This document shows positions 1-12,248 of a DNA stretch of 64,000 bases, in pieces (position 1 is the stretch's first letter; every line of letters starts with the position of its first letter). Origin of the DNA: a virus. The stretch is taken from positions 1-64,000 of IMG/VR virus record IMGVR_UViG_3300000117_000011. One strand, written 5' to 3'. Position numbers and translations under genes: made by a program. The notes beneath the pieces were generated by a model. That model did no database searches and had not been told where the DNA came from. It saw nothing but the letters and a program-made list of their open reading frames with translations.

Positions 1-54
1 TATTGTTTACACGAAGCGAGACGACGCCACGAAGCCACCACCACCCGAAACACC

Positions 55-804
55 TTAGAAGTCTAAGTTGTCCTCATCGTCCATGAGATCCTCAATGTCG
101 CCCATCATATCCTCGTCGCCATCCTCAGCCCAAGCTGAACCACCATCGTCACCAGGATTCAGTTCGTAACCGCTGAGCTCTAAAACTTCTTCTTCCTCAA
201 CCTCAAAGAACGCGTCAGCCTCTGGTACGTCAACGATCTTGTCGAGACTATGCGTTGGAACTGATGACCCGCCAACAGGAGCTTCATCATCTACGTTGCG
301 GGTCGTCGCGACCTCTTCAAGCTTCATCGCGTGGGGAGTCGAGTTAAGAGCCTCGATCTTGTCGTCTAGTAAATGGACTGGAACGTAGTGAAGCTGTTTA
401 GGATGATCGATAGTAGATCCAGCTGTTCGAACCTCGAAGGCCGCACAATTACTTCCATTCGCGACGCGAGGACCTGCGAAGCGAATCCAAGCGAAGCCGG
501 CTGTCTGAATCCAACCTGTGTATTCAGCTGCGTCATCGAATCCTTCGAGAGTCGGGATGATATCATCAACTGCGACCTTAACCCATTTCGCTCCTCGACC
601 TGAGAAACGAGCCTTCACCTCGCTACGCCAATCATTGACGAGGCCAGTCTTCGCCGAACGACCACAAAGCGGTTTAACAAAAACACTGACCAGATCGTCA
701 AGATGACGTTTAAAGGCCGTCACTTTAGGCTCACCACCTTCTTCGATAAAGTTGTTGAACAGTCCCATGATCATATCATCATCATATTGTTTTTGGTTTT
801 CCAT
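55..804 (-). CDS. hypothetical early protein with long acidic C-terminal tail
   Basis: ORF track 55..840. The second ATG (804) has the RBS AAGGAG 5 nt upstream, whereas the 840 ATG is only 5 nt from a -10 box. C-terminus is D/E-rich. Confidence 0.75.
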   Translation of the reverse strand: MENQKQYDDDMIMGLFNNFIEEGGEPKVTAFKRHLDDLVSVFVKPLCGRSAKTGLVNDWRSEVKARFSGRGAKWVKVAVDDIIPTLEGFDDAAEYTGWIQTAGFAWIRFAGPRVANGSNCAAFEVRTAGSTIDHPKQLHYVPVHLLDDKIEALNSTPHAMKLEEVATTRNVDDEAPVGGSSVPTHSLDKIVDVPEADAFFEVEEEEVLELSGYELNPGDDGGSAWAEDGDEDMMGDIEDLMDDEDNLDF

Positions 805-845
805 GTTGTCTCCTTGAATGTTTGATTGAATGTTTTCCATGGTTT

Positions 846-875
846 ATTATAATCCTTTGTTTTATTAGTTACACG
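846..875 (-). promoter_or_regulatory. early promoter copy 1 (CGTGTAA-N17-TATAAT)
   Basis: Minus strand reads cGTGTAA ctaataaaacaaaggat TATAAT; same motif and spacing in four copies. Confidence 0.8.
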
Positions 876-899
876 TTTTGAGTTAAGTTTGATTCCTTG

Positions 900-977
900 T
901 TATCTGTAATACCAGATCGCGAAGGGAATCGCCAAGAATGTTGAGCCAAGAATGAGCGGGATTAAGTCGTAGATCAT
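900..977 (-). CDS. 25-aa hydrophobic peptide (MIYDLIPLILGSTFLAIPFAIWYYR)
   Basis: Hand-translated. TAAGGAGGA RBS just upstream of the ATG, own promoter, one TM-like stretch; below the ORF-track cutoff. Confidence 0.7.
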   Translation of the reverse strand: MIYDLIPLILGSTFLAIPFAIWYYR

Positions 978-995
978 TTGTCCTCCTTATGGTTT

Positions 996-1025
996 ATTAT
1001 ATCTTTACTTTAGATGAGTTACACG
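996..1025 (-). promoter_or_regulatory. early promoter copy 2
   Basis: cGTGTAA ctcatctaaagtaaaga TATAAT. Confidence 0.8.
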
Positions 1026-1048
1026 TTTCGGGTTGACGAGGTGAGAGG

Positions 1049-1105
1049 TTATAACCATAAGACAAATGCGGTAAGAGAAAGAAAGGTTATTAAGTCGGGA
1101 ATCAT
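1049..1105 (-). CDS. 18-aa hydrophobic peptide (MIPDLITFLSLTAFVLWL; alternative start 1117)
   Basis: Hand-translated. GGAGG RBS before both ATGs, own promoter, N-terminus MIxDLI shared with the 900-977 peptide. Confidence 0.6.
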   Translation of the reverse strand: MIPDLITFLSLTAFVLWL

Positions 1106-1162
1106 ATAAGCCTCCATGAGACCTCCGTGATTGAATGATTGATCGTTTGTCCTTACATCTGT

Positions 1163-1192
1163 ATTATAGACTAAGGAATTGAGTTTTACACG
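1163..1192 (-). promoter_or_regulatory. early promoter copy 3
   Basis: cGTGTAA aactcaattccttagtc TATAAT. Confidence 0.8.
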
Positions 1193-1365
1193 TATTACGT
1201 CCTTTTCAGCCGAATCATCTCACATCGCAGTCCTCGTGTATCTTGACCGCTTCATCAGCTGGAGTTTCCTAGTTTTCAAAGATCTGGAGTCGGAATCCCG
1301 AGGTCGGTTGCCATCCCTTCCTCATCGTCCTTAGGAACCGCCGTTCCTATCCCTCCTTATGTTTT

Positions 1366-1395
1366 ATTATACTCCACATCGTGGAAAGATACACG
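1366..1395 (-). promoter_or_regulatory. early promoter copy 4
   Basis: cGTGTAT ctttccacgatgtggag TATAAT. Confidence 0.75.
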
Positions 1396-1399
1396 ACGA

Positions 1400-1605
1400 T
1401 GGCTAAAAGCCCCGGGGCTCTAAAGGGCCCCTAAAAGGGCCCCCTACAGAGGGCCTAAAACTCAGTGATACACGCCGGGCTAGGGGGTTTAGTCGTCTAC
1501 CCGAATTTTCTTCGCGCAACTTTTTCAAAAAGTATTAGGGTACACATCTGAATACACCAAGATGTGCTTAAGCACGCATCTGAATATATCGAGTATAAAT
1601 AGAGG
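1400..1605. other. non-coding strand/composition switch with GGGCCC repeats, palindromes and direct repeats
   Basis: GCCCCGGGGC, tandem AAAGGGCCCC units, palindrome GTGCTTAAGCAC (1564-1575), direct repeat CATCTGAATA (1545-1554, 1577-1586); genes diverge from here. Confidence 0.6.
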
Positions 1606-1657
1606 AGTGTATATATGAAAGTTTGCGGCGCTTATTTCAAATAGTATTTTCAGCTTT

Positions 1658-1705
1658 TTGTGCGAAAAACTTCGAGAGAAATTTTGGAAAACTTTTTAAT
1701 AATTA
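1658..1705 (+). repeat. upstream repeat family P, copy 1
   Basis: AAAAACTTCGRGAGA..TTTT.GAAAACTTTT core shared with 2687-2750 and 3554-3613. Confidence 0.8.
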
Positions 1706-1731
1706 GTGTATAAGTGTATAAAGAGGTTGAC

Positions 1732-1896
1732 ATGATATTATTAGAAAGTTACATAAGAAGTGTTTTATTCGAAAGAGGCAGGTTTAGTAGTGGGAGTGGA
1801 TTAGATGCTTATTTAATTGGTTTGGATTGTGAAGCCAAAGAACTTTTAGGATTAGTTAAAAAAATTAAAGAAAGTAATAGTGTGCTGAAAGTGTGA
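1732..1896 (+). CDS. small protein with Glu-terminated leader (MILLESYIRSVLFE)
   Basis: GAGGT RBS before the ATG at 1732; leader resembles those of downstream genes. Confidence 0.6.
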   Translation: MILLESYIRSVLFERGRFSSGSGLDAYLIGLDCEAKELLGLVKKIKESNSVLKV

Positions 1897-2495
1897 ATAA
1901 TCGTTTTGGCTATTTACAAATCTTTGAAAAGAAAAAAGAAATAATTGATATTGTAAAAAAAGAATTAGGGGAAGAGTTTGTTGATGATTTAGGTATTGAG
2001 TTTAATGATGATTTGCCTGTTGTGGTGAGAATAATCCAGGGTGACAATACTTCTAAAGAAAAATCAGGCAAATTAAATTTACAAGATAACTTAGATTGGA
2101 TGGTTCATGATACTTGGCATTTAATTGTTGATAGAAGTTTTTGGATTAGGGAATTTTTAAGTAAAAGTGTGCATATTAGTCAAACGCTGGAATATTATAT
2201 TGATAATAGTATTTTAGTAAATGGTAGTCGTACTGATTTTGAAAAAGATTGTTTAATGTTTTTGAGAAATTATAATTTTACATCTGGAGTAGGTGAATTT
2301 GATTGTGTGCCAAGTTTAGCAGCTTTTTGTGTTATGAACAAAGAAGTAAAAAGTGTGCCTGTTGAGTTTAAAGGAAAAATGAAAAATTATGAAGACTTTA
2401 ATGAGTTTTACATTAGATTACATGTTATGAGTCCTTTATTGTGGAAGTCTATATTTAAGAGTTTAAAAGGTAAGTTGATTTTTAATCATTTTTAA
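1893..2495 (+). CDS. hypothetical protein
   Basis: 200-aa ORF with GTGA overlap; may be the frameshifted continuation of 1732-1896. Confidence 0.65.
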   Translation: MNNRFGYLQIFEKKKEIIDIVKKELGEEFVDDLGIEFNDDLPVVVRIIQGDNTSKEKSGKLNLQDNLDWMVHDTWHLIVDRSFWIREFLSKSVHISQTLEYYIDNSILVNGSRTDFEKDCLMFLRNYNFTSGVGEFDCVPSLAAFCVMNKEVKSVPVEFKGKMKNYEDFNEFYIRLHVMSPLLWKSIFKSLKGKLIFNHF

Positions 2496-2505
2496 TGTAT
2501 TTTTT

Positions 2506-2539
2506 GACGAGCTGGGTGTCTCTTGAGTCACAGACGTAA
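2506..2539 (+). repeat. downstream repeat family T, copy 1
   Basis: GAGCTGGGTGTCTCTTGAGTCACAGACGTAA; related copies at 3477-3510 and 4779-4804. Confidence 0.8.
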
Positions 2540-2686
2540 TAGGATAAACTTGAACGCACAAATATATTATATTTTTTTATATTTGTGCACAAATCTCTAA
2601 CTATCTCTAGAGAAACGGGTATTGAATGGGGCATTTGCATTGAATCCCCTAAATAGTTTCCAGTATGCAAAACAGTTTTGCTGAAA

Positions 2687-2750
2687 TTGTGCAAAAACTT
2701 CGGGAGACTTTTTCGAAAACTTTTACATTTCCAGAGATAAATAGATTTAT
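2687..2750 (+). repeat. upstream repeat family P, copy 2
   Basis: AAAAACTTCGGGAGA...GAAAACTTTTACATTT...ATAAATAGATTTAT. Confidence 0.85.
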
Positions 2751-2778
2751 AGAATATTTTCAAAGTAAGGTTTTAAAT

Positions 2779-3471
2779 ATGAGAGTGACTGAGAGCAAGT
2801 TAAGAAGGATAATTCGCCAAGTAATAAAAGAAAGTGCTGGTGGATCATATAATTGGTATTCTGATTGGGTGGAAGCAACAGAAAAAATTAAAAAAAGAAG
2901 TTTATCAAAGATTTCATATGAATGTTTAAACGACTTTGGTATTTCTCGTGTTGATGCAAACAGTAACGACAGTATTGTATATAATTTAACTAAATTTCAA
3001 GATAGAGGAATTTCTGAGGGTGAATTAACATCTATCCTTTCTAACATATCAAGCGTACATGCTGCAGATGCTGATGAGATGTCAAGACTTCATTTAATGT
3101 TTACAGCGACTGTTGGGTTGCTAATAGAAAATGGAAAGATAAAAGTTAATTTTGGTGCTAAAGACAAAAATGCATTAAAACAAATGAAACCTGGAGAGAT
3201 GGCGATTGTTGCTGCGATTTCAACATCTGGAAGTGATAGGTTACAATCTTGTTTAATATATGAAAAGCCAAGCAATCATTCACTTCCTGACAGGAGTAAT
3301 TATTTTGTAATTGCACAAAATCCTCATAATCACAAGGTATTTGATAGAGAAGAGGCTGGTAATATAAGAAGGTATAACGAAAAACAGCAAGCTGATTATT
3401 TAGAGCGAAGGGAAAAAGCCGAGAAAAAAAGAAAAGACGAAGAGCTTCCTTGGTACGAATATACTAGATAA
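2779..3471 (+). CDS. putative internal head protein, leader MRVTESKLRRIIRQVIKE
   Basis: Start reassigned to the ATG at 2779 because the leader matches the 3641 gene and the upstream extension runs through repeat P. Confidence 0.7.
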   Translation: MRVTESKLRRIIRQVIKESAGGSYNWYSDWVEATEKIKKRSLSKISYECLNDFGISRVDANSNDSIVYNLTKFQDRGISEGELTSILSNISSVHAADADEMSRLHLMFTATVGLLIENGKIKVNFGAKDKNALKQMKPGEMAIVAAISTSGSDRLQSCLIYEKPSNHSLPDRSNYFVIAQNPHNHKVFDREEAGNIRRYNEKQQADYLERREKAEKKRKDEELPWYEYTR

Positions 3472-3476
3472 TCTTT

Positions 3477-3510
3477 GTCGAGCTGGGCATCTCTAGCGTC
3501 ACAGACGTAA
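3477..3510 (+). repeat. downstream repeat family T, copy 2
   Basis: GAGCTGGGCATCTCTAGCGTCACAGACGTAA, immediately after a stop codon. Confidence 0.8.
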
Positions 3511-3553
3511 CAGAATAGTTTTAAGTTTGTGAAAGTATTTTACTGGGTTTGAT

Positions 3554-3613
3554 GAAAAAACTTCGGGAGAAATTTTGAAAACTTTTTACATTTTCAGTTA
3601 TAAATAGATTTAT
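3554..3613 (+). repeat. upstream repeat family P, copy 3
   Basis: AAAAAACTTCGGGAGAAATTTTGAAAACTTTTTACATTTT...ATAAATAGATTTAT. Confidence 0.85.
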
Positions 3614-3640
3614 ATGATGTTTTTTAAAGAAAGATTAAAT

Positions 3641-3955
3641 ATGAGAATAACTGAGAGTAGATTGAGAAGAGTGATTCGTCAAGTGATTAGCGAAAACATG
3701 CCTTACGACGAGCCTGATGAGTATATGGGTTATGGGTCGTATGGTGAAGTTGAAGATAGTGATGTTAGTCTTAAAGAGCTAGAGAATATGCTAATGTCAC
3801 ATAGCTATGAAGCCCAAAGAGCTGATGGTTATGGTGAAGTAATGCATGCGAAAGGTGAGTATGAGCTTGGTGTTATGAGTAAAGACGAGTACATGAATTT
3901 GCTTAGGCCTTTTATAAATGACGTAATTGAGCAAAGTGGAAGATCTAGTTTTTAA
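3641..3955 (+). CDS. putative internal head protein, leader MRITESRLRRVIRQVISE, acidic body
   Basis: Leader nearly identical to that of the 2779 gene; bodies unrelated. Confidence 0.7.
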   Translation: MRITESRLRRVIRQVISENMPYDEPDEYMGYGSYGEVEDSDVSLKELENMLMSHSYEAQRADGYGEVMHAKGEYELGVMSKDEYMNLLRPFINDVIEQSGRSSF

Positions 3956-3977
3956 TTATTATAAAGTGTAAATACAA

Positions 3978-4703
3978 ATGAGAAGAAAAGACACAGCGCT
4001 ATTAATAGAAGAGTGGAAACAATTTAACAGTGAAGAAGAGTTAATTTATAACACAAAGCTACTGTTAGAAAAAAATGAAAATTTCGACAAGCAAGTTTTA
4101 AAAGAAAGTTTTGCAGGAAAAATGACTGATTGGTTGCAGTCTGGATTTGACATTGTAGGATTTATTCCCGGGATAGGCGAAGGATTTGATGCGATAAATG
4201 CTATAATATCTTTATCTCGAGGCAGACCTTTCGAAGCTTTGTGCTCAATTATATCATTATTCCCAGGTGTAGGTGATGTTATTGGTAAGGGCGGAAAATA
4301 TTTGGTTAAATATTTAGGACCAGAGTTAGATGATATTATTCAGGGTAAGATTTCAAGCCCAAGTGACTTAAGTGAAAACTCAATTTTAAAAAAAGAATTT
4401 CTTTTATTAGAGGCTAACAAAGGAGATGGAAAAATGTTTAAATTAGTTGTTAAAGCAATTTCAAAAACCAAAAACAGGTGGTTTCCTTTTATTAAAAACT
4501 TATTAAAAAGTGTAGAAAAAAACAAAGATTCAGTTGAACTGGTTAATGCAATAGAAGATAGTGAAATCAAGCTACCTAAAATTCCTGAAAAATTTAAGGA
4601 AAAAATTGGAGATATAATAAAGAAAAAAATAACAAACCCAAGTGACATTATGAAAAAAATTACTAATCTTGTTAATTTTATTGATAATTGTGCTAAAGAA
4701 TAA
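3978..4703 (+). CDS. protein with pre-toxin TG (PT-TG)-like helical domain after a LLIEEW leader
   Basis: DIVGFIPGIGEGFDAINAIISL...IISLFPGVGDVIGKGGK matches the PT-TG/polymorphic-toxin linker pattern. Confidence 0.65.
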   Translation: MRRKDTALLIEEWKQFNSEEELIYNTKLLLEKNENFDKQVLKESFAGKMTDWLQSGFDIVGFIPGIGEGFDAINAIISLSRGRPFEALCSIISLFPGVGDVIGKGGKYLVKYLGPELDDIIQGKISSPSDLSENSILKKEFLLLEANKGDGKMFKLVVKAISKTKNRWFPFIKNLLKSVEKNKDSVELVNAIEDSEIKLPKIPEKFKEKIGDIIKKKITNPSDIMKKITNLVNFIDNCAKE

Positions 4704-4778
4704 AATATTTTTATACTTTTATTAATAAGTAGATTTATTTAATATCTATTAAAGAAAGTGACTTATAGAATTGGGTGT

Positions 4779-4804
4779 GCTGGGTATCTCTAGTGTCACG
4801 ACGT
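4779..4804 (+). repeat. downstream repeat family T, copy 3 (degenerate)
   Basis: GCTGGGTATCTCTAGTGTCACGACGT. Confidence 0.7.
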
Positions 4805-4880
4805 TTATATAAGTTTAATCTTATGTGCGAAAATATATATATTATTAAGCGTATGAATAAGATTAAACAGGGGTCATAAT

Positions 4881-5663
4881 ATGAATCGTAAAGAATATAA
4901 ATTATTGGTTGAAGGATGGAATGGTTATTTGAACGAAATTTCATCTGATATAAGTGGTGTAACAAAGATTAAATCATTTGTTGATAGAATAGTTGCTTTA
5001 CGTGAAGAGACAGGGAAAGATATTAAGATTAGGGCACGATTAAACGGTACTGTACTAGAAGTTAATTTATTAAACTACTCAGTCTTAAGAATGAATGGTG
5101 TATTTTATCAAAAAGCTTGGCTTAATCATCTTGGAAATGTAGATAGAGAAGTAAAAGTTGATGGAACCCGCGATCCTTACGTAATAAAATATTCAGACGT
5201 AGGTGGAGGATTTGGGCCTTTACTTTATGAGATAGGATTAGAGATTGTTAGTTGTAACTTAGGTGGTGCATTAATGAGTGATAGAGGTGAAGTATCTGAG
5301 GAAGCTGAAAGTGTTTGGGATCGCTATCTTAGTCGATCTAAATCTGAGTTCAATCTTGAAGCTGTTAAGATGGATTTTTCTGATGAGTCTTGGGACGATG
5401 TAATGTATGATGCACCCTTTGCAGATATGTCAGACGAAGAGCAGGAAAGATTTAAACAGACACAAAAGTACACTCCAGATGATGCTTCTGATGACATATA
5501 TCAATATTCAGCTATTTTAAATTCAGCAAAAAAAGGTAATTTTGTTGATGGTGATTGGAAAAATTTTGAAAGCCCTTTAGCATATGCATATTATAAATTA
5601 GAGCCTGAAGTATTGACATACATTGAAAGTTTAGAAGAAAACATACTTGAGATAGACATTTAA
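4881..5663 (+). CDS. GNAT-like protein with YKLLVEGW leader (paralog of 9266-9955)
   Basis: GGGFGPLLYE...LMSDRGEVSEEAESVWDRY resembles a GNAT motif A/B-like core. Confidence 0.55.
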   Translation: MNRKEYKLLVEGWNGYLNEISSDISGVTKIKSFVDRIVALREETGKDIKIRARLNGTVLEVNLLNYSVLRMNGVFYQKAWLNHLGNVDREVKVDGTRDPYVIKYSDVGGGFGPLLYEIGLEIVSCNLGGALMSDRGEVSEEAESVWDRYLSRSKSEFNLEAVKMDFSDESWDDVMYDAPFADMSDEEQERFKQTQKYTPDDASDDIYQYSAILNSAKKGNFVDGDWKNFESPLAYAYYKLEPEVLTYIESLEENILEIDI

Positions 5664-5806
5664 ACTTGTTTGTTTAGTTCGTTAACTGTTTTTAATATAT
5701 TCTGAATTTCATCTTCGTCAAAACATTCTCTATTAACAGCTTCTTGCAGTGTTCTAATTAAAATATTGATACATACTAATTGTTTGTGATTTATTAAATA
5801 ATTCAT
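5660..5806 (-). CDS. 48-aa helical hypothetical protein (MNYLINHKQLVCINILIRTLQEAVNRECFDEDEIQNILKTVNELNKQV)
   Basis: Hand-translated; fills the intergenic gap; TATAAT just upstream. Confidence 0.55.
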   Translation of the reverse strand: MNYLINHKQLVCINILIRTLQEAVNRECFDEDEIQNILKTVNELNKQV

Positions 5807-5847
5807 GATAATTATAGTATGATAAGATTAGAAAGTTTACAATTAAC

Positions 5848-6105
5848 ATGAAAAAGACAGTAAAATATATTGCAATTTGCTTAACTTTCTTTTTAGTATC
5901 TGTAACTTCATGTTCAGAGAAAAAAGAAGACATTAAATTGCCTAGAACAGAGTGTGAGCAGATAAAAGACATTGTTACAGATTGTTTAGGGTTATATCGA
6001 GGTGCTTTAGGATATATAAAAAGTTGTGGTAATATATCTTTGTCTGAAATTAAATCTCTTGCAAGCTGTGAAGAAATATTTGAGTATATAGAAAACAAGG
6101 ATTAA
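5848..6105 (+). CDS. Cys-rich lipoprotein
   Basis: Basic N-terminus, hydrophobic stretch, VTS-C lipobox, four further Cys. Confidence 0.65.
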   Translation: MKKTVKYIAICLTFFLVSVTSCSEKKEDIKLPRTECEQIKDIVTDCLGLYRGALGYIKSCGNISLSEIKSLASCEEIFEYIENKD

Positions 6106-6107
6106 TA

Positions 6108-7589
6108 ATGAAAAGGCAAGAATATAAGTTGTTAGTAGAAAACTGGAATACTTTTTTAGTTAAAGAAGAAGAAAACTATAGTTTAATTGAGCAAAATATA
6201 AATAGCAATGCTGAGTTGTTGTATCTTTTAGAGTGGGGTGATAAACTTGAAAGATTAATCGTAGAAAGTGGTAACTATTTACTATTAGAAAGCTTACATG
6301 AATCAAATAGTTTTCTTGGAAAACTAATTAGATTAAAAGATAAAGTTAAAAGTTCATTTAAAGTTAGAAAAGATGCTATAGATGGTGAAGGCAACAAAGT
6401 CAAGTACGATGATAGCGAAGAAAGTCAAGTAAAACAAGAGTATACTAAGCTTGCTAAAGCAGGCATGTCAGCGATGGCTGCAATTAAAATTGCAACTATC
6501 ATTATGACAGCTTTGACTCCAAATAGCTTAGCAGCTGGCAGCGCGCCAAAGAATTTTCAAGAACTTCCTCCCGGTGTTCAACAACTAATTTCTGCTGAAA
6601 CGAAAATACCTGCTAAAGATTTGACTAGAATTCAATCTATGGAATTTAATGATTTTCATATAGGGCCTAGAACGCAAAATTTAGAGTTCGATGCAAAGAA
6701 AATAGGACCAAGTGAAGAGTTTAAAGCAGAATTAGCATTAGCTGCTGCGAAGAACGTTGCAGACGAACCAGAAAAAGTAAAAAAAGAAACAGCTTTAGAA
6801 CTTCTTGATAAGTTAGGTTTGAAAGGAGGCTTACCAGATGACTTTGAAAAAGGTTCTGCTGAAGGTCGTGCAACATCATTAGGTATAGATACATCAGGTC
6901 CAGTTACAGTATTGAATTCTTTTGAATCTTCAGAAGAAGCAGACATGGAACTAGCTAATAATATTGTCAAGCTCATGGCAAGTCAAACAGACTTAGGTAA
7001 AACAGATGTTAAGACATATGATTATTCACCGACACAAGATGAATTCAAGCAATCTTTAAATAATTTTAAAAGTCTAGACAAGTCAACTAAAATAAAGCTT
7101 TTGAGAGCTGCAAAACTTAAAGCAATAAAGGATTTAATGGAAAAGCATCCTAAGATTTTTGATAAAGCAAAGTCATGGACGAGTACTATTTGGGGATTTG
7201 AAGGAGAGGGTGCAGGAAAAGATGTTTCTGATATGGGACATCATAAAGCGGAAGGTTCTAAAGAAGCTAGAGTTTTGAGCTCGTTATATGGTGCTTTTAC
7301 TGATGATGACTTTGATTTTAGCGAAGTAAAAACATTTCAAGATCTTGAAAAAGTTATTGATGGTCATAATAGTTTTGCTCAAGTTACAGGTGACAACTCT
7401 CTTGCAGATGATGTAAAAGGATCAATTGTTACTTATGTATTGAAAAACTGTACAGACGCAGGTTTAGAAGATCTTGAATCTAATTTAAGTGGAGTAAAAC
7501 ACATTGATCAAGACTTAGAAAAGATTACAGATGCAGCAACTACTTTTAAAATTAGCGGAACTCAAGATTCTTATACAAAACTTAGGTAA
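6108..7589 (+). CDS. putative internal virion/ejection protein, YKLLVENW leader
   Basis: Shared leader, several (L/I)xE sites, one hydrophobic segment (AMAAIKIATIIMTAL). Confidence 0.6.
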   Translation: MKRQEYKLLVENWNTFLVKEEENYSLIEQNINSNAELLYLLEWGDKLERLIVESGNYLLLESLHESNSFLGKLIRLKDKVKSSFKVRKDAIDGEGNKVKYDDSEESQVKQEYTKLAKAGMSAMAAIKIATIIMTALTPNSLAAGSAPKNFQELPPGVQQLISAETKIPAKDLTRIQSMEFNDFHIGPRTQNLEFDAKKIGPSEEFKAELALAAAKNVADEPEKVKKETALELLDKLGLKGGLPDDFEKGSAEGRATSLGIDTSGPVTVLNSFESSEEADMELANNIVKLMASQTDLGKTDVKTYDYSPTQDEFKQSLNNFKSLDKSTKIKLLRAAKLKAIKDLMEKHPKIFDKAKSWTSTIWGFEGEGAGKDVSDMGHHKAEGSKEARVLSSLYGAFTDDDFDFSEVKTFQDLEKVIDGHNSFAQVTGDNSLADDVKGSIVTYVLKNCTDAGLEDLESNLSGVKHIDQDLEKITDAATTFKISGTQDSYTKLR

Positions 7590-7607
7590 TAAGTTTAAAC
7601 TCAAATA

Positions 7608-8900
7608 CTAGACAAATAAATGTTTATAAACTCTTTTAAGAGATTCATTGCTGCTTTTATCTTGAAAATTTTTCGGTGTAATAGATATTCTTATTTCTTC
7701 AATGCCTGTTTTAATTAGTTCATAATTTTTTTGAGGTCTGCCGCTTCTTTCTAAATCACTATGATATTTTGTTTTACCTCTTACTGTACCATCATCATTA
7801 AAGTTGTACAATATTTCTTCAGCAGCAATTTCAAATAAATTAATAGCAACTTCAACTTCTTCTTCGCTTAAGTCTTCGCTGTCTAAGACTATAGCTGCGT
7901 GACGCATTGTTTCGTTAAAGTTTTTAAACTTATCTAAAAATCCCGGGCCCATATTGTAAGCCATGTCATAAAAAGCTTGCTTTGTATCTTCAGGAAGTAC
8001 TTTAAAATATTTTACTTTGTTCATTTCATCAATTACGTGAGCAACTTCTTTATCTGCAGCGAGACCTGCTTGATCTAAGTTTATAGGATCAGTACTTGAT
8101 GCATTATCATCTTGAATTGAATAAGTAGTAAAAAACTTTTCACGCCATCCCGGGAGTGTTTTTTCTATCCACTCGGCTTTACTTACACCTTTTTTACTTT
8201 GTTCTTTGAAATCTTTTTCTAATTCTTCATGTTCACCTTCATCAAGATCTGAAGTAGAAAAAGCTTTTGTTCCATGACCAACACTCCATTGATGGTGGTC
8301 TAGATATGGTAGTCCTCTAAAACCTTCGTGACTAAGAATACTTTGTTTAACTTTTTCTTTGTCAATACTTGAGTCGTATTCTATAGAGAATTTAAGATCT
8401 TCACTTTCACTTTTGTTTTTAATTTCGCTAAATGTTTTTTCAATTTTGCTTTTTTCTTCTGGATTTTGTTTGATTAGAGCATCTTTAACTGCATCTTCAG
8501 TTTTTTCTTGTTGAGCAGAGTACGTTTGACCACTACCTTGACTGCTCCCAGGAAATTTAACATGATCAGGTATACAGTTCCAAAGAGCTACAATCATTCC
8601 AAGCGTTACCAATCCTCTTGACGCATAACTTTTAAGACTATTGTACTTTGGTTCTATTGCAGTTAATGCTTTAAATTCTTTGCTTTGTTCGTCAGGTGTA
8701 TCTTTATCTACATAAACATTTTCTTTTCCTACAGGTCTTAAGCCAGTCTGAACATATTTTTCAGGGTCAGATCCTGGTGGATGAGAAGAAACTGGTGTTA
8801 AATTAACATACCTTTTTGAGCTGTCGTCTTCTATTCCTGATTCTATTAAGAATTTTTTTATTAAATAGTGATTTTTTTTATTTTCTGCTATAATAATCAT
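7608..8900 (-). CDS. phage lysozyme (GH24-like) domain protein, likely virion-associated
   Basis: ILSHEGFRGLPYLD..WSVGHG and AFYDMAYNMG..FLDKFKNF motifs; long N-terminal extension with a hydrophobic segment. Confidence 0.8.
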   Translation of the reverse strand: MIIIAENKKNHYLIKKFLIESGIEDDSSKRYVNLTPVSSHPPGSDPEKYVQTGLRPVGKENVYVDKDTPDEQSKEFKALTAIEPKYNSLKSYASRGLVTLGMIVALWNCIPDHVKFPGSSQGSGQTYSAQQEKTEDAVKDALIKQNPEEKSKIEKTFSEIKNKSESEDLKFSIEYDSSIDKEKVKQSILSHEGFRGLPYLDHHQWSVGHGTKAFSTSDLDEGEHEELEKDFKEQSKKGVSKAEWIEKTLPGWREKFFTTYSIQDDNASSTDPINLDQAGLAADKEVAHVIDEMNKVKYFKVLPEDTKQAFYDMAYNMGPGFLDKFKNFNETMRHAAIVLDSEDLSEEEVEVAINLFEIAAEEILYNFNDDGTVRGKTKYHSDLERSGRPQKNYELIKTGIEEIRISITPKNFQDKSSNESLKRVYKHLFV

Positions 8901-8945
8901 ACAATACCTTTGATTTTATATTTAAGTATAATTATGAGAGACAAA

Positions 8946-9239
8946 ATGAATAATGACGATTTATATATAATTCAGTCAGATGTAACTGGAATGATAAAAA
9001 TAGGTAGATCTAAAAACCCAGAAAAAAGACTGAAACAGCTTCAAACTGGTAATCCAAATAAGTTAAAATTAATAGCTTCTTTTAAAGGAGAAGGATGGAA
9101 AGAAAAGAATATTCATGAAAGATTAAAAAGATATCGTCTTGAAGGTGAATGGTTTAGTTACGATTGCATAGGAAGCATTCCTGATAATCATTATGAACAA
9201 ATATCTTTTGGCTCATTTGATGACTGGTGGGATAATTAA
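8946..9239 (+). CDS. GIY-YIG superfamily (T5orf172/MUG113-like) protein
   Basis: LYIIQ..IKIGRSKNPEKRLKQLQTGNP...EKNIH...RLEGEWF. Confidence 0.85.
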   Translation: MNNDDLYIIQSDVTGMIKIGRSKNPEKRLKQLQTGNPNKLKLIASFKGEGWKEKNIHERLKRYRLEGEWFSYDCIGSIPDNHYEQISFGSFDDWWDN

Positions 9240-9265
9240 TTTAATAGATACTTAAAGGGAAAAAA

Positions 9266-9955
9266 ATGAATACAAAAGATTATTTTTATCTGTTTAATGA
9301 GTGGAAACGTTTTTTAGTTAAAGAAGACAACAATATCTTAAATATCGATAGTCAAATTCAAAAAGCAATAAAAAAAACAAGTGAGCTTAATAGACAAAAA
9401 TTAAAAATAGACATCCTAAAAGAAGGAAACGAGTATACTTTAATCGCAAACTTTGTAGACGAAAGCAATGAAAATCATATTATAGAGGAAATAGCAGATA
9501 TATCATTTAGAAAATTCCCGTACAGTCAAGTAAAAGATCAGAAAGGAATTGAAAGAAATGCTTATATAATCGAGCGCACTAAAATTGTCAAGTATGACTT
9601 AGGGCCTTTAATGTATGATTTAATAATTGAATTTGTCTCAGGTGACAATTCTGTATTGTGTCCTGATAGATTTGAAATTTCTAGTGAGGCTCAAAACTTA
9701 TGGTTAAATTATTTTAATAAAAGACCCGAAGTGAAAACTGTCCAGCTTGATATCGAAAATGATAGTTTAGATGACAAAGAATTTCCAAACTTAACGCCAG
9801 ATTGGCGAGATGATTTTTATCAAAATGTATCAATAGAAGATAAAGGTAAAGAGTGGTTTAACAGTCCTTTTTCAAAAGGATACTACAAAGATAATAGTTA
9901 CGTTATTAATCAATTAAATCTTAATAATGATATCTTTATTTTAAATATAAAATAA
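9266..9955 (+). CDS. GNAT-like protein with LFNEWKRFLVKE leader (paralog of 4881-5663)
   Basis: LGPLMYD...LCPDRFEISSEAQNLWLNY...TPD..DD.YQ...SP....YYK aligns with the 4881 gene. Confidence 0.55.
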   Translation: MNTKDYFYLFNEWKRFLVKEDNNILNIDSQIQKAIKKTSELNRQKLKIDILKEGNEYTLIANFVDESNENHIIEEIADISFRKFPYSQVKDQKGIERNAYIIERTKIVKYDLGPLMYDLIIEFVSGDNSVLCPDRFEISSEAQNLWLNYFNKRPEVKTVQLDIENDSLDDKEFPNLTPDWRDDFYQNVSIEDKGKEWFNSPFSKGYYKDNSYVINQLNLNNDIFILNIK

Positions 9956-9972
9956 ACTAACAAGGCTTAACT

Positions 9973-10896
9973 ATGAAAGATTTTTTTCTGGAAGAAATTA
10001 AAAAAAGTGGTGGATATTCTTGTTACCATGCACATTTTGACAAAGCTTATTTGATAACTCCTGAAATATTTGAAAAATGCCAATCATCGCTTCAGGAAAA
10101 ATGGAAGCTGTACAGAGGATTTAAAATAAATTACACAAAAGAAACACTTTTAAACAGAATGTCAAAATGTATAGTTAACATGATTAATCAGGACGTGAAA
10201 TATGTCAGAACTTTTGTTGATGCTGATAGTATTGTTGAACAAAAATGTATTGATGCTGCTTTGTGTTTAAAAGAAATTTATAGAGACGAGATAAAAATAG
10301 ATATAGCAATACAACCTCTTGAAGGGTTAGAAAAAACAAAAAGTAAAGAAAACTTTCTAGAAGCTTGCATGAAATCTGATTTTATTGGCGGTCTTCCAGA
10401 CCGAGATTCTTCACCAGATAATCATTTAGATTTGTTGTTTGGTTTAGCAAAAAGTCTTAATAAACCTGTTGACATACACGTTGGTCAAAACAATATCCCG
10501 TCTGAAAAAGAAACAGAGCTTGTGTTGGACAAAATAGAAGAACACAAACTTAAACAAAAAGTTAGTTTAGTTCACTGTATTTCACTTTCTTGTCAAGATG
10601 AGAGCTATATAAGACACCAGGCAAATCGTATGCAGCAATTAAACGTTGATGTGATAGTTTGTCCAAGCGCAGCAATAAGTATGAAGCAGAATCATTCTGT
10701 ATACTCTCCTGTTCATAATTCAATAGCACCTGTCAAGATACTTTTAGAAGAAGGTGTCAATGTTAAATTAGGTATAGACAACATTGAAGATTTATTTATG
10801 CCTTTAGTAGACGGTGACATGTGGTTTGAAACAAGATTGTTAATGGAGGCAACAAGAATTTATGATTTGAAAAAAATACTAAATATAGTAACCTAG
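9973..10896 (+). CDS. metal-dependent amidohydrolase, cytosine deaminase (CodA)-like
   Basis: HAHFDK, VRTFVD, IGGLP, DIHVGQ, VHCISL and LGIDN in CodA-family order. Confidence 0.85.
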   Translation: MKDFFLEEIKKSGGYSCYHAHFDKAYLITPEIFEKCQSSLQEKWKLYRGFKINYTKETLLNRMSKCIVNMINQDVKYVRTFVDADSIVEQKCIDAALCLKEIYRDEIKIDIAIQPLEGLEKTKSKENFLEACMKSDFIGGLPDRDSSPDNHLDLLFGLAKSLNKPVDIHVGQNNIPSEKETELVLDKIEEHKLKQKVSLVHCISLSCQDESYIRHQANRMQQLNVDVIVCPSAAISMKQNHSVYSPVHNSIAPVKILLEEGVNVKLGIDNIEDLFMPLVDGDMWFETRLLMEATRIYDLKKILNIVT

Positions 10897-11366
10897 TCTT
10901 TGTCTAATCTAGGAATCCATTCATCAACTTCACTCGGGAGAACAACGTCAGACTGTTTTTTTGTTTTAATAGGTTTTTCTCCATTACTAAAAACTGAAAG
11001 TTTGTCAATTACAGCATTTTGCAATTCAAATATTTGTTCTCTTAATAACTGCATTTGAATTTGAGAGTCACGTAAGCGTGCTATTAAGGCAGCACGGTCA
11101 GCATTGGCAGTAGCAAGTTTATCCTTTAACTCTTCAACTTCAGATGGATCCCGACCAGATGCAATTGCGAGCATAGAAGAAATACTGCCTGTGAGCATAC
11201 CTATAATACCAATTAGAATATCACGATTTTCTTCAACAATTTTTGTTGTTGATAAAAAATAAATAAGCTCACAAATAAGTGCCATAAATACAACACTAGC
11301 CCACCAACCACGTTTGGCTTTGTCACTTTTTGTAAATTGTTTGTTTGTTTTTTCTTTCTCTGCCAT
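10893..11366 (-). CDS. two-TM membrane protein with C-terminal coiled coil
   Basis: Two hydrophobic helices followed by a heptad-like stretch; starts 3 nt after the cyclase stop. Confidence 0.7.
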   Translation of the reverse strand: MAEKEKTNKQFTKSDKAKRGWWASVVFMALICELIYFLSTTKIVEENRDILIGIIGMLTGSISSMLAIASGRDPSEVEELKDKLATANADRAALIARLRDSQIQMQLLREQIFELQNAVIDKLSVFSNGEKPIKTKKQSDVVLPSEVDEWIPRLDKD

Positions 11367-11369
11367 GAT

Positions 11370-12248
11370 TTAAGATCCTATTAGTATGTTATACAGAAAT
11401 ATATATATATTTTGCAGTAAAGGATACACCCAGCCAATATAATGTTTTAAATCTATTCCTGTCATAGTGTAAAAAATTGCATTTCCATGGAAAGTATTAG
11501 CAGTCTTGATAAGACCCCAAACTAAATAACAAAATATCAAAAAGGAAAGTCTATATATAAACCACCAAAACAATTCATTTAGCGTTTTATTTCTCAATCT
11601 TGTTTTAATTTTTTTTGCGCCACCAATTCGCTTTGCTTTTTCGCCATCTGGAGGTGGTTGTAATTGTGATTCTATTAAACCAATAGCATAAATAGATTCA
11701 GGTTCAGCAACACCTTTAAATTTATATAATCCTACAAGCGCTGACAGGGCTTTTTTAGGTATGTATGGACTCCGGTGCCCATATTTTTTATATTGTATAA
11801 ACGCAGATTTTGAGAGCAATATTTGTTCTTCTCCACATATAGACATAGTTCTTGCTGCAATATTTTTTCCAATTCCTTCAAGGTTAATTCTTTTCCCGCC
11901 AGCTCTTACGATATGTGCTTCAGACTTAACAATAAGCATTTTATCCCAATGTATTCCTACTCTACTACGAAAAGGAAACTTCTTTTTTCGAAGAAACTTT
12001 TTATAGTCAAAAGCAAAACCAATTGAATCTGAAACTTTTGAAAACATCATTAAATGACCATCAGAAGCATCTATTAATTGGCCGTTGTGTCTTGCAATAA
12101 AATTCATGACTGCTTTATCATGAATTCCGAACCACATTGCTGATATTCTTGAGCCATTTTTCTGCACAAACTTAGTACTACCAATTATATCTGTCAAGAC
12201 AATTGCAATATGAGATTCAATCATATTCTCAGGTAAATAATTACTCAT
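11370..12248 (-). CDS. class III nucleotidyl (adenylate/guanylate) cyclase with C-terminal membrane anchor
   Basis: VLTDIIGST, GQLIDASDG, RVGIH, NIAAR, QILLS and FKGV.EP motifs; hydrophobic C-terminus. Confidence 0.85.
   Translation of the reverse strand: MSNYLPENMIESHIAIVLTDIIGSTKFVQKNGSRISAMWFGIHDKAVMNFIARHNGQLIDASDGHLMMFSKVSDSIGFAFDYKKFLRKKKFPFRSRVGIHWDKMLIVKSEAHIVRAGGKRINLEGIGKNIAARTMSICGEEQILLSKSAFIQYKKYGHRSPYIPKKALSALVGLYKFKGVAEPESIYAIGLIESQLQPPPDGEKAKRIGGAKKIKTRLRNKTLNELFWWFIYRLSFLIFCYLVWGLIKTANTFHGNAIFYTMTGIDLKHYIGWVYPLLQNIYIFLYNILIGS

Follow-up and report, generated by a model that had tools for sequence, protein, structure and literature searches.

The stretch analyzed here, hereafter the window, comprises the first 64 kb (64,000 nucleotides) of the single 95,164-bp viral contig IMGVR_UViG_3300000117_000011 from IMG/VR. 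The locus of interest occupies positions 1732–9955, where seven plus-strand genes start with N-terminal leader peptides of 14–20 residues (Table 1). The leaders quoted in an earlier account of this DNA that was made from the letters alone (the sequence-only reading) are real, as all of them stand at the starts of open reading frames (ORFs), namely, MILLESYIRSVLFE at 1732, MRVTESKLRRIIRQVIKE at 2779 and MRITESRLRRVIRQVISE at 3641, together with the class B leaders at 3978, 4881, 6108 and 9266. A regular expression for the leaders, run over the whole contig, gave matches confined to these seven places. The scan of the contig with hidden Markov models (HMMs) of the leaders, which the sequence-only reading had proposed, added one further class B leader, which starts an ORF truncated at the contig end (94940, 3.6 kb past the capsid gene and outside the window). 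Three leader classes were distinguished, namely, A (2779 and 3641), B (3978, 4881, 6108, 9266 and 94940) and C (1732). The three leaders at 1732, 2779 and 3641 had been taken as one type A; this grouping stood for 2779 and 3641, whereas the leader at 1732 belongs to the separate class C, with the pattern M-x-L-L-x-x-Y-I-x-x-x-L-x-E and four members in the fetched loci.

Table 1. Positions of leader genes, the lysozyme-like gene and repeats in the window (aa, amino acids).
Feature	Position	Strand	Details
Class C leader gene, 54 aa	1732–1896	+	Leader residues 1–14 (1732–1773), ends L-F-E
Class A gene A2, 230 aa	2779–3471	+	Leader 2779–2832, ends I-K-E
Class A gene A3, 104 aa, acidic payload	3641–3955	+	Leader 3641–3694, ends I-S-E
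Class B gene B1, 241 aa	3978–4703	+	Leader about 3978–4034
Class B gene B2, 260 aa	4881–5663	+	Leader 4881–4937, ends L-N-E; GLGPLxY[DE]-family payload
Class B gene B3, 493 aa	6108–7589	+	Leader 6108–6167, ends V-K-E
Class B gene B4, 229 aa, B2 paralog	9266–9955	+	Leader 9266–9325
GH24 lysozyme-like protein, 430 aa	7608–8900	-	Own conserved 20-residue N-terminus
Upstream "P" repeat	2690–2776	+	Copies 1643–1707 and 3553–3639; ATAAATA box
Downstream "T" repeat	3469–3517	+	Copy 2498–2546; related stretch near 4775–4815; deletion end point

According to all-versus-all blastp of ten proteins, the similarity between A2 and A3 is limited to residues 1–19 (74% identity), and that of B1 and B3 to the other class B proteins is limited to the N-terminal 17–41 residues, whereas B2 and B4 are full-length paralogs (E = 9 × 10−13). 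The claim that the leaders sit on unrelated proteins thus holds for A2/A3, B1 and B3, which are alike only N-terminally, and has to be withdrawn for the pair B2/B4. When the ten proteins of the region were compared with Pfam and PHROGs, none of the seven leader proteins exceeded the curated cut-off, and the sole match was that of the GIY-YIG/T5orf172 gene at 8868–9239. Rfam gave nothing at E ≤ 0.1 on positions 1–10500, and comparison of A2, for which the structural model was poor, with a structural atlas gave no usable match.

The leader motif was then considered in relatives, for which related loci were collected from IMG/VR by two protein-seeded scans and one DNA-pattern scan. The 12-residue class A pattern had 45 matches in 36 stretches of 29–58% G+C, 43 of them no more than 48 codons from the preceding in-frame stop, and the unique leader proteins in the fetched loci numbered 79 for class A and 19 for class B. 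An [IL]-x-E motif ending at residues 11–26 was found in 73 of the 79 class A proteins, with peaks at 14, 18, 19 and 21; among control ORFs the count was 126 of 583, and composition-matched shuffled leaders averaged 34.0 of 79. [ILV]-x-E was present in all class B leaders (19/19). It should be noted that these counts describe a sequence motif only, and that the search pattern determined columns 1–12 of class A, the later columns being free. At the last motif site, the middle residue (P2) is free, with 12 different residues recorded, and the residue after the Glu is usually S, N or A. Beyond about residue 19–22, the column information is at background, and the similarity ends at the motif. The class A leader is strongly basic, with a helical pattern and R at positions 2, 9, 10 and 13. 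In the passages cited from PMC9026906 and PMC5694885, the targeting sequences of T4 are described as N-terminal propeptides of 10–20 residues on otherwise diverse proteins, the front part of the leader being responsible for targeting and processing taking place at residues 8 and 10. The cleavage site of gp21 is reported to lie behind L/I-X-E, and Asp in the last motif position reportedly blocks processing.

The codons of the leaders were compared in two pairs of genes. Between A2 and A3, 8 leader codons are identical, 6 differ synonymously and 4 non-synonymously, three of the latter being V/I or K/R exchanges. The corresponding figures for B2 and B3 are 6, 6 and 5, with upstream DNA at background identity. 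Selection therefore acts on the leader peptide and not just on the DNA.

For clustering, the payload was defined as the protein from residue 25 onward, and the payloads of the 98 leader proteins formed 74 blastp clusters. The largest of them was the B2/B4 family, characterized by a conserved GLGPLxY[DE] motif. The leader of this family is of class B in the phage group of this contig, of class A in six members (from L010, L012, L033 and L041; E down to 1 × 10−16) and of class C in L005 (L005:2570, E = 1 × 10−27). Leaders are thus interchangeable between homologous payloads, and the profiles of classes A and B are unrelated to each other (hhalign 0.05%). A GNAT-like fold was suggested for the B2/B4 payload by the structure atlas (feature score 0.93; TM score 0.55 to a cluster with PF00583 in 15% of its members), which is to be taken as a lead and nothing firmer; the B4-family profile had 0 matches at E ≤ 1 in the PDB.

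The record is a linear fragment with a CheckV completeness of 38%, and relatives of 102–153 kb are rated 39–61% complete, from which the whole genome is probably about 250 kb in size. Since the fragment is rated only 38% complete, position 1 is a contig end and not a genome terminus, and the location of the locus next to a putative terminus, as proposed earlier, could not be upheld. Beyond the window, at contig positions 79973–91344, lies a T4-type head module encoding a gp17-type terminase (TerL), a gp20 portal (Pfam Portal_T4, 4 × 10−79), a gp21-family prohead protease at 84451–85053 (Pfam Peptidase_S77, 1 × 10−29; PHROG head maturation protease, 4 × 10−51) and a gp23 capsid protein (Pfam Gp23, 6.6 × 10−79). 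One N is present within the portal gene (contig position 82119, outside the window). Tblastn with the protease matched 2,611 phage records, which were T4-like throughout among the matches listed, the best of those listed being a Microcystis phage, Flavobacterium phages and cyanomyoviruses. Megablast of positions 1–12000 against cultured phages gave no match. The source of the contig is an uncultured marine T4-like jumbo phage.

The head genes follow the order portal, p275, protease, p122, p142, p96, small genes, a long scaffold-like protein (524 residues) and capsid protein, which is syntenic in nine relatives. The class A profile matched the N-terminus of the syntenic p96 family, a conserved head-module protein of 96 residues (8 relatives; hhalign 87%, E = 4 × 10−6, 22 columns), and, to a lesser degree, the N-terminus of p142 (52%); control comparisons of class A with the capsid-protein N-terminus, of A with B and of B with p96 gave 0.05–0.1%. 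Outside the leader genes, the top match of this contig among 4,191 N-terminal windows searched was p96 (E = 0.055). By eye, [IL]-x-E occurs within about 30 residues in seven of eight p96 orthologs and in nine of nine p142 orthologs. The p142 gene (L003 6427–6855; contig 85427–85855) encodes the N-terminus L-K-x-I-V-K-E-C-L-V-E-I-L-A-E-G-L, with two L-x-E sites, which is almost invariant over nine relatives of 31–55% G+C. Class B gave 9% against the capsid-protein N-terminus (an L-V-E-x-W stretch) and 6.6% against the protease N-terminus, and neither was among the HMM matches listed; the view that class B is a copy of one of these N-termini is unsupported, and a derivation from either would be a weak lead suggested by this comparison.

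The class A profile had 1,759 matches at E ≤ 1 × 10−3 among 1.84 billion cluster representatives, with an N-terminal copy in 145 of the best 150 of these 1,759 matches (P0016–P0165). Of 36 leader-bearing records, 8 had an S77 protease, among them all four of at least 100 kb, and 12 had gp23; the absences say little because all leader-bearing records are fragments. Three class A leader starts follow the capsid gene in L030, with one ORF between, and two of them belong to ORFs of at least 60 aa. Five large records contained 2, 7, 3, 4 and 9 class A genes, mostly clustered. In four of these five records (G000, G007, G009 and G032), the class A clusters lie about 2–17 kb from a contig end, probably because the micro-diversity of the locus breaks assemblies, rather than because a genome terminus is near.

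In cultured phages (50,697 phage records), neither a 108-residue leader protein nor a 22-residue leader found a match by tblastn. No class B leader was found in the four cultured T4-like phages searched, RB43 included, and RB43 had no class A leader either. The sole class A-like start in these four phages, a shortened one, was that of Flavobacterium phage vB_FspM_immuto (MW353176), in which two hypothetical proteins (immuto35A_176 and immuto35A_190; L056, L058: 113144, 102836) begin with M-K-K-S-Q-L-R-x-I-I. It could serve as a model at the bench. A full-text literature search, which did not extend to supplementary files, found no paper on these leaders.

Comparison of five related loci revealed common flanks with a different set of class A, B and C genes between them. 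The conserved flanks are a 261-residue gene (55–840 in the window) on one side and the lysozyme-like gene, the GIY-YIG gene, a cyclase operon and a helicase on the other. Class A and C cassettes are flanked by repeats of 49–87 nucleotides, and the leaders of A2 and A3 sit within a longer DNA repeat that includes 87 nucleotides of upstream non-coding DNA. The start of A2 was set at 2779 and not at 2665 because the stretch preceding 2779 can be aligned with the non-coding DNA in front of A3. The P repeat is likely to be both the promoter and the recombination homology of class A and C cassettes. A marine metagenome contig joins position 3488 to 4786 between two T repeats, so that A3 and B1 are removed; the shorter side of the joint has 136 letters, and the contig appeared in two runs, X5 and X6, that have identical figures and are perhaps a single data set. 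In run X2, P repeats were also joined to each other, with weaker evidence. The locus is thus hyperplastic, with cassette turnover at the population level. Folding of three T repeats revealed no hairpin more stable than those of shuffled sequences (z from -0.96 to +1.49).

Of 70 called genes, 7 have an ATAAATA box upstream, among them A2, A3 and the genes for TerL, the capsid protein and the gp25-like protein. Its reading as a late promoter is unsupported: the box stands upstream of 11 of 36 low-GC class A genes and of 14 of 197 controls, and the 11 cases are not independent because they are copies of one repeat.

Within the variable locus, positions 5848–6105 (plus strand) hold an 85-residue lipoprotein-like gene (signal peptide followed by Cys) that recurs in every one of the five related loci, as a conserved anchor and not a leader gene. 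The gene directly after it has a class B or B-like leader in four loci and is a class A variant in L007. As for the leader genes themselves, B3 has one hydrophobic window near residues 115–137 that resembles a membrane helix. The stop of the 54-residue class C gene overlaps by 4 nucleotides a GTG-start ORF of 200 residues (1893–2495); since other class C genes are 192–328 residues long, the 54-residue gene may be a remnant or translationally coupled.

The lysozyme-like protein had been counted as the eighth cargo of the system, and this membership was rejected. Its likeness to GH24 was seen only by a profile search against the PDB, where the matches were lysozymes (best E = 3.7 × 10−4). Its first 20 residues are near-invariant in five orthologs that are otherwise 23–72% identical to it, and they were found in no other protein family, so that this N-terminus is family-specific. 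One ortholog has Asp instead of Glu at the supposed cut position, and the protein was absent among the listed matches of the class A and class B leader HMMs. The GIY-YIG/T5orf172 gene (Pfam MUG113, 2 × 10−13) lies head to head with the lysozyme-like gene, and this pairing is kept in relatives.

Taken by analogy with T4, the three leader classes are rather probably capsid-targeting propeptides like those of T4 internal proteins. The capsid-targeting proposal of the sequence-only reading is therefore retained in its core, for which the gp21-family protease, the [I/L/V]-x-E ends, the leader swaps and the likeness to p96 speak, and loses the lysozyme and the terminus. Further points in its favour are the 74 payload clusters, the head genes found in leader-bearing records, the leader starts beyond the capsid gene in L030 and at 94940, the 1,759 matching clusters and the ATAAATA box common to A2, A3 and head genes. 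Docking, cleavage, retention in the virion and injection would all follow the T4 model. The leader would be a short N-terminal helix by which a freshly synthesized protein docks onto the scaffolding core during prohead assembly, and the class A helix may have been copied from the N-terminus of p96 or share a common origin with it. After assembly of the shell, the gp21-family serine protease would cut after the [I/L/V]-x-E that closes the leader, and the freed cargo would stay in the head and probably leave it with the DNA. The non-coding repeats and the leader itself may permit the gain, loss and re-tagging of cassettes. A more specific version has slightly less than an even chance in our estimation, namely, that a conserved prohead-core protein gave rise to class A as a portable docking helix, that this helix has been spread by marine T4-like jumbo phages to unrelated protein families numbering well above a thousand, multi-module polyproteins included, and that two unrelated leaders doing the same job are used alongside it.

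Several observations weigh against capsid targeting. The payloads are mostly acidic, five mature ones having a net charge of -10 to -20, unlike the basic internal proteins of the T4 type: the net charge from residue 21 onward is 0 for A2, -13 for A3, +4 for B1, -20 for B2, -19 for B3 and -11 for B4, and a basic cargo as in T4-type internal proteins was not found in the net charges of these six payloads. A second, internal class A copy, in several cases without Met, is present in 54 of the best 150 profile matches, although this list favours multi-copy proteins because scores add up; the motif therefore needs no free N-terminus and may do more than address, and polyproteins with repeated leader–payload modules exist. 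In the other four large records, the head module is tens of kb away from most class A genes. The search pattern dictated residues 1–12 of the class A set, and class B bears a weak likeness to the N-termini of the capsid protein and the protease. Moreover, the upstream repeat also looks sigma-70-like, and promoter-like sites are in little excess (51 compared with 40.5 ± 6.0 in shuffled sequences).

The internal copies, the distance of most leader clusters from the head genes and the acidic payloads would also suit tags for another common partner, such as a modifying enzyme acting as in ribosomally synthesized and post-translationally modified peptides (RiPP-like), a chaperone, an export route or a degradation or timing system. 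We regard this explanation as unlikely, since no conserved enzyme gene stands beside the clusters in the five compared loci, and both the similarity to p96 and the [IL]-x-E boundary would be left unexplained. Its variant with a radical-SAM-linked tag was rejected, PF04055 being present in 0 of 37 leader-bearing records and in 14 of 14 control genomes.

It is likewise improbable that the leader is retained in the mature protein as a basic amphipathic helix for oligomerisation or for nucleic-acid or membrane binding. Three unrelated leaders on one payload family fit address labels better than a specific biochemical function, and the combination of I/L, a variable residue and an invariant Glu is the pattern of a protease site. 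In favour of a retained helix, the class A leader is strongly basic and helical in pattern and recurs inside longer proteins, and p96 and p142 keep it within conserved small proteins. The third explanation, in which the common 5' ends are a by-product of cassette recombination that copied a promoter and the first codons, the peptide being functionless, is consistent with the location of the A2 and A3 leaders inside the longer repeat and with cassette joints at repeats, but it has a very small probability and is close to refuted by the codon pattern, given the six synonymous and three conservative changes between the two class A leaders, the conservation of B leaders despite unrelated upstream DNA and the recurrence of the same peptide on contigs of 29–58% G+C and in 1,759 clusters.

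Capsid-carried proteins act before any phage gene is expressed, and those of T4 include an inhibitor of a restriction system. If class A is indeed such a portable docking helix, the leader is an address label readable from sequence, and the injected proteome of uncultured ocean phages, which should be rich in anti-defence and host-takeover proteins, could be listed from metagenomes alone. An experimental question would thereby become a search problem, and candidate first-strike effectors could be listed at once. How address labels arise and spread is suggested by the leader swaps and by the connection with a head-core protein, and the leaders could serve as packaging tags in the engineering of phages other than coliphages, as the T4 sequence does.

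The leaders would represent a variation on the capsid-targeting principle of T4, and the principle itself is not new. In the hyperplastic internal-protein locus of T-even phages, reportedly described by Repoila et al. in 1994, the genes vary between relatives and the targeting leader is kept. Gene content at the present locus likewise varies while the leader stays; in contrast to the T-even locus, it belongs to another lineage (marine, about 250 kb as estimated by CheckV), and several leader classes are mixed in it.

As far as the cited passages on IPI, IPII, IPIII and Alt of T4 go (PMC9026906, PMC3012670), the common features are a short N-terminal propeptide shared by diverse proteins, its end in an L/I-X-E type site, the presence of a gp21-family protease with gp20 and gp23 head genes, and a cargo set that varies between close relatives. 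The differences are as follows: three leader classes of 14–22 residues are used here, compared with a T4 sequence of 10; the cargo is mostly acidic and 50–490 residues long, whereas a basic character is described for the T4-type internal proteins; class A can be traced to a conserved protein of the head module; and class A is known, from sequence alone, on 1,759 protein clusters and also inside polyproteins.

Promoter/stem-loop (PeSL) cassettes, in which a conserved intergenic repeat combines a strong sigma-70 promoter with a stable stem-loop, mediate modular shuffling in T4-type phages, according to the passages cited from PMC2839356. The similarity with the present locus lies in intergenic repeats of about 50–90 nucleotides that flank ORFan genes in a variable region and in deletions and insertions that end in repeats (here the joint of 3488 to 4786). 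Unlike PeSL as described there, the repeats of this locus have no stable stem-loop, and the class A repeat runs into the coding leader.

The portions of PMC5694885 on phages phiKZ, 201phi2-1 and SPN3US describe jumbo phages which have a gp21-related protease cutting after Glu, as predicted for the phage studied here, and which have many processed head-internal proteins and paralogs with conserved N-termini. Their propeptides are mostly longer than 100 residues and have an S/A-X-E motif, whereas those of the present locus are short, with a T4-like I/L-x-E, and, in contrast to the phiKZ group, the head genes here are plainly T4-type by Pfam.

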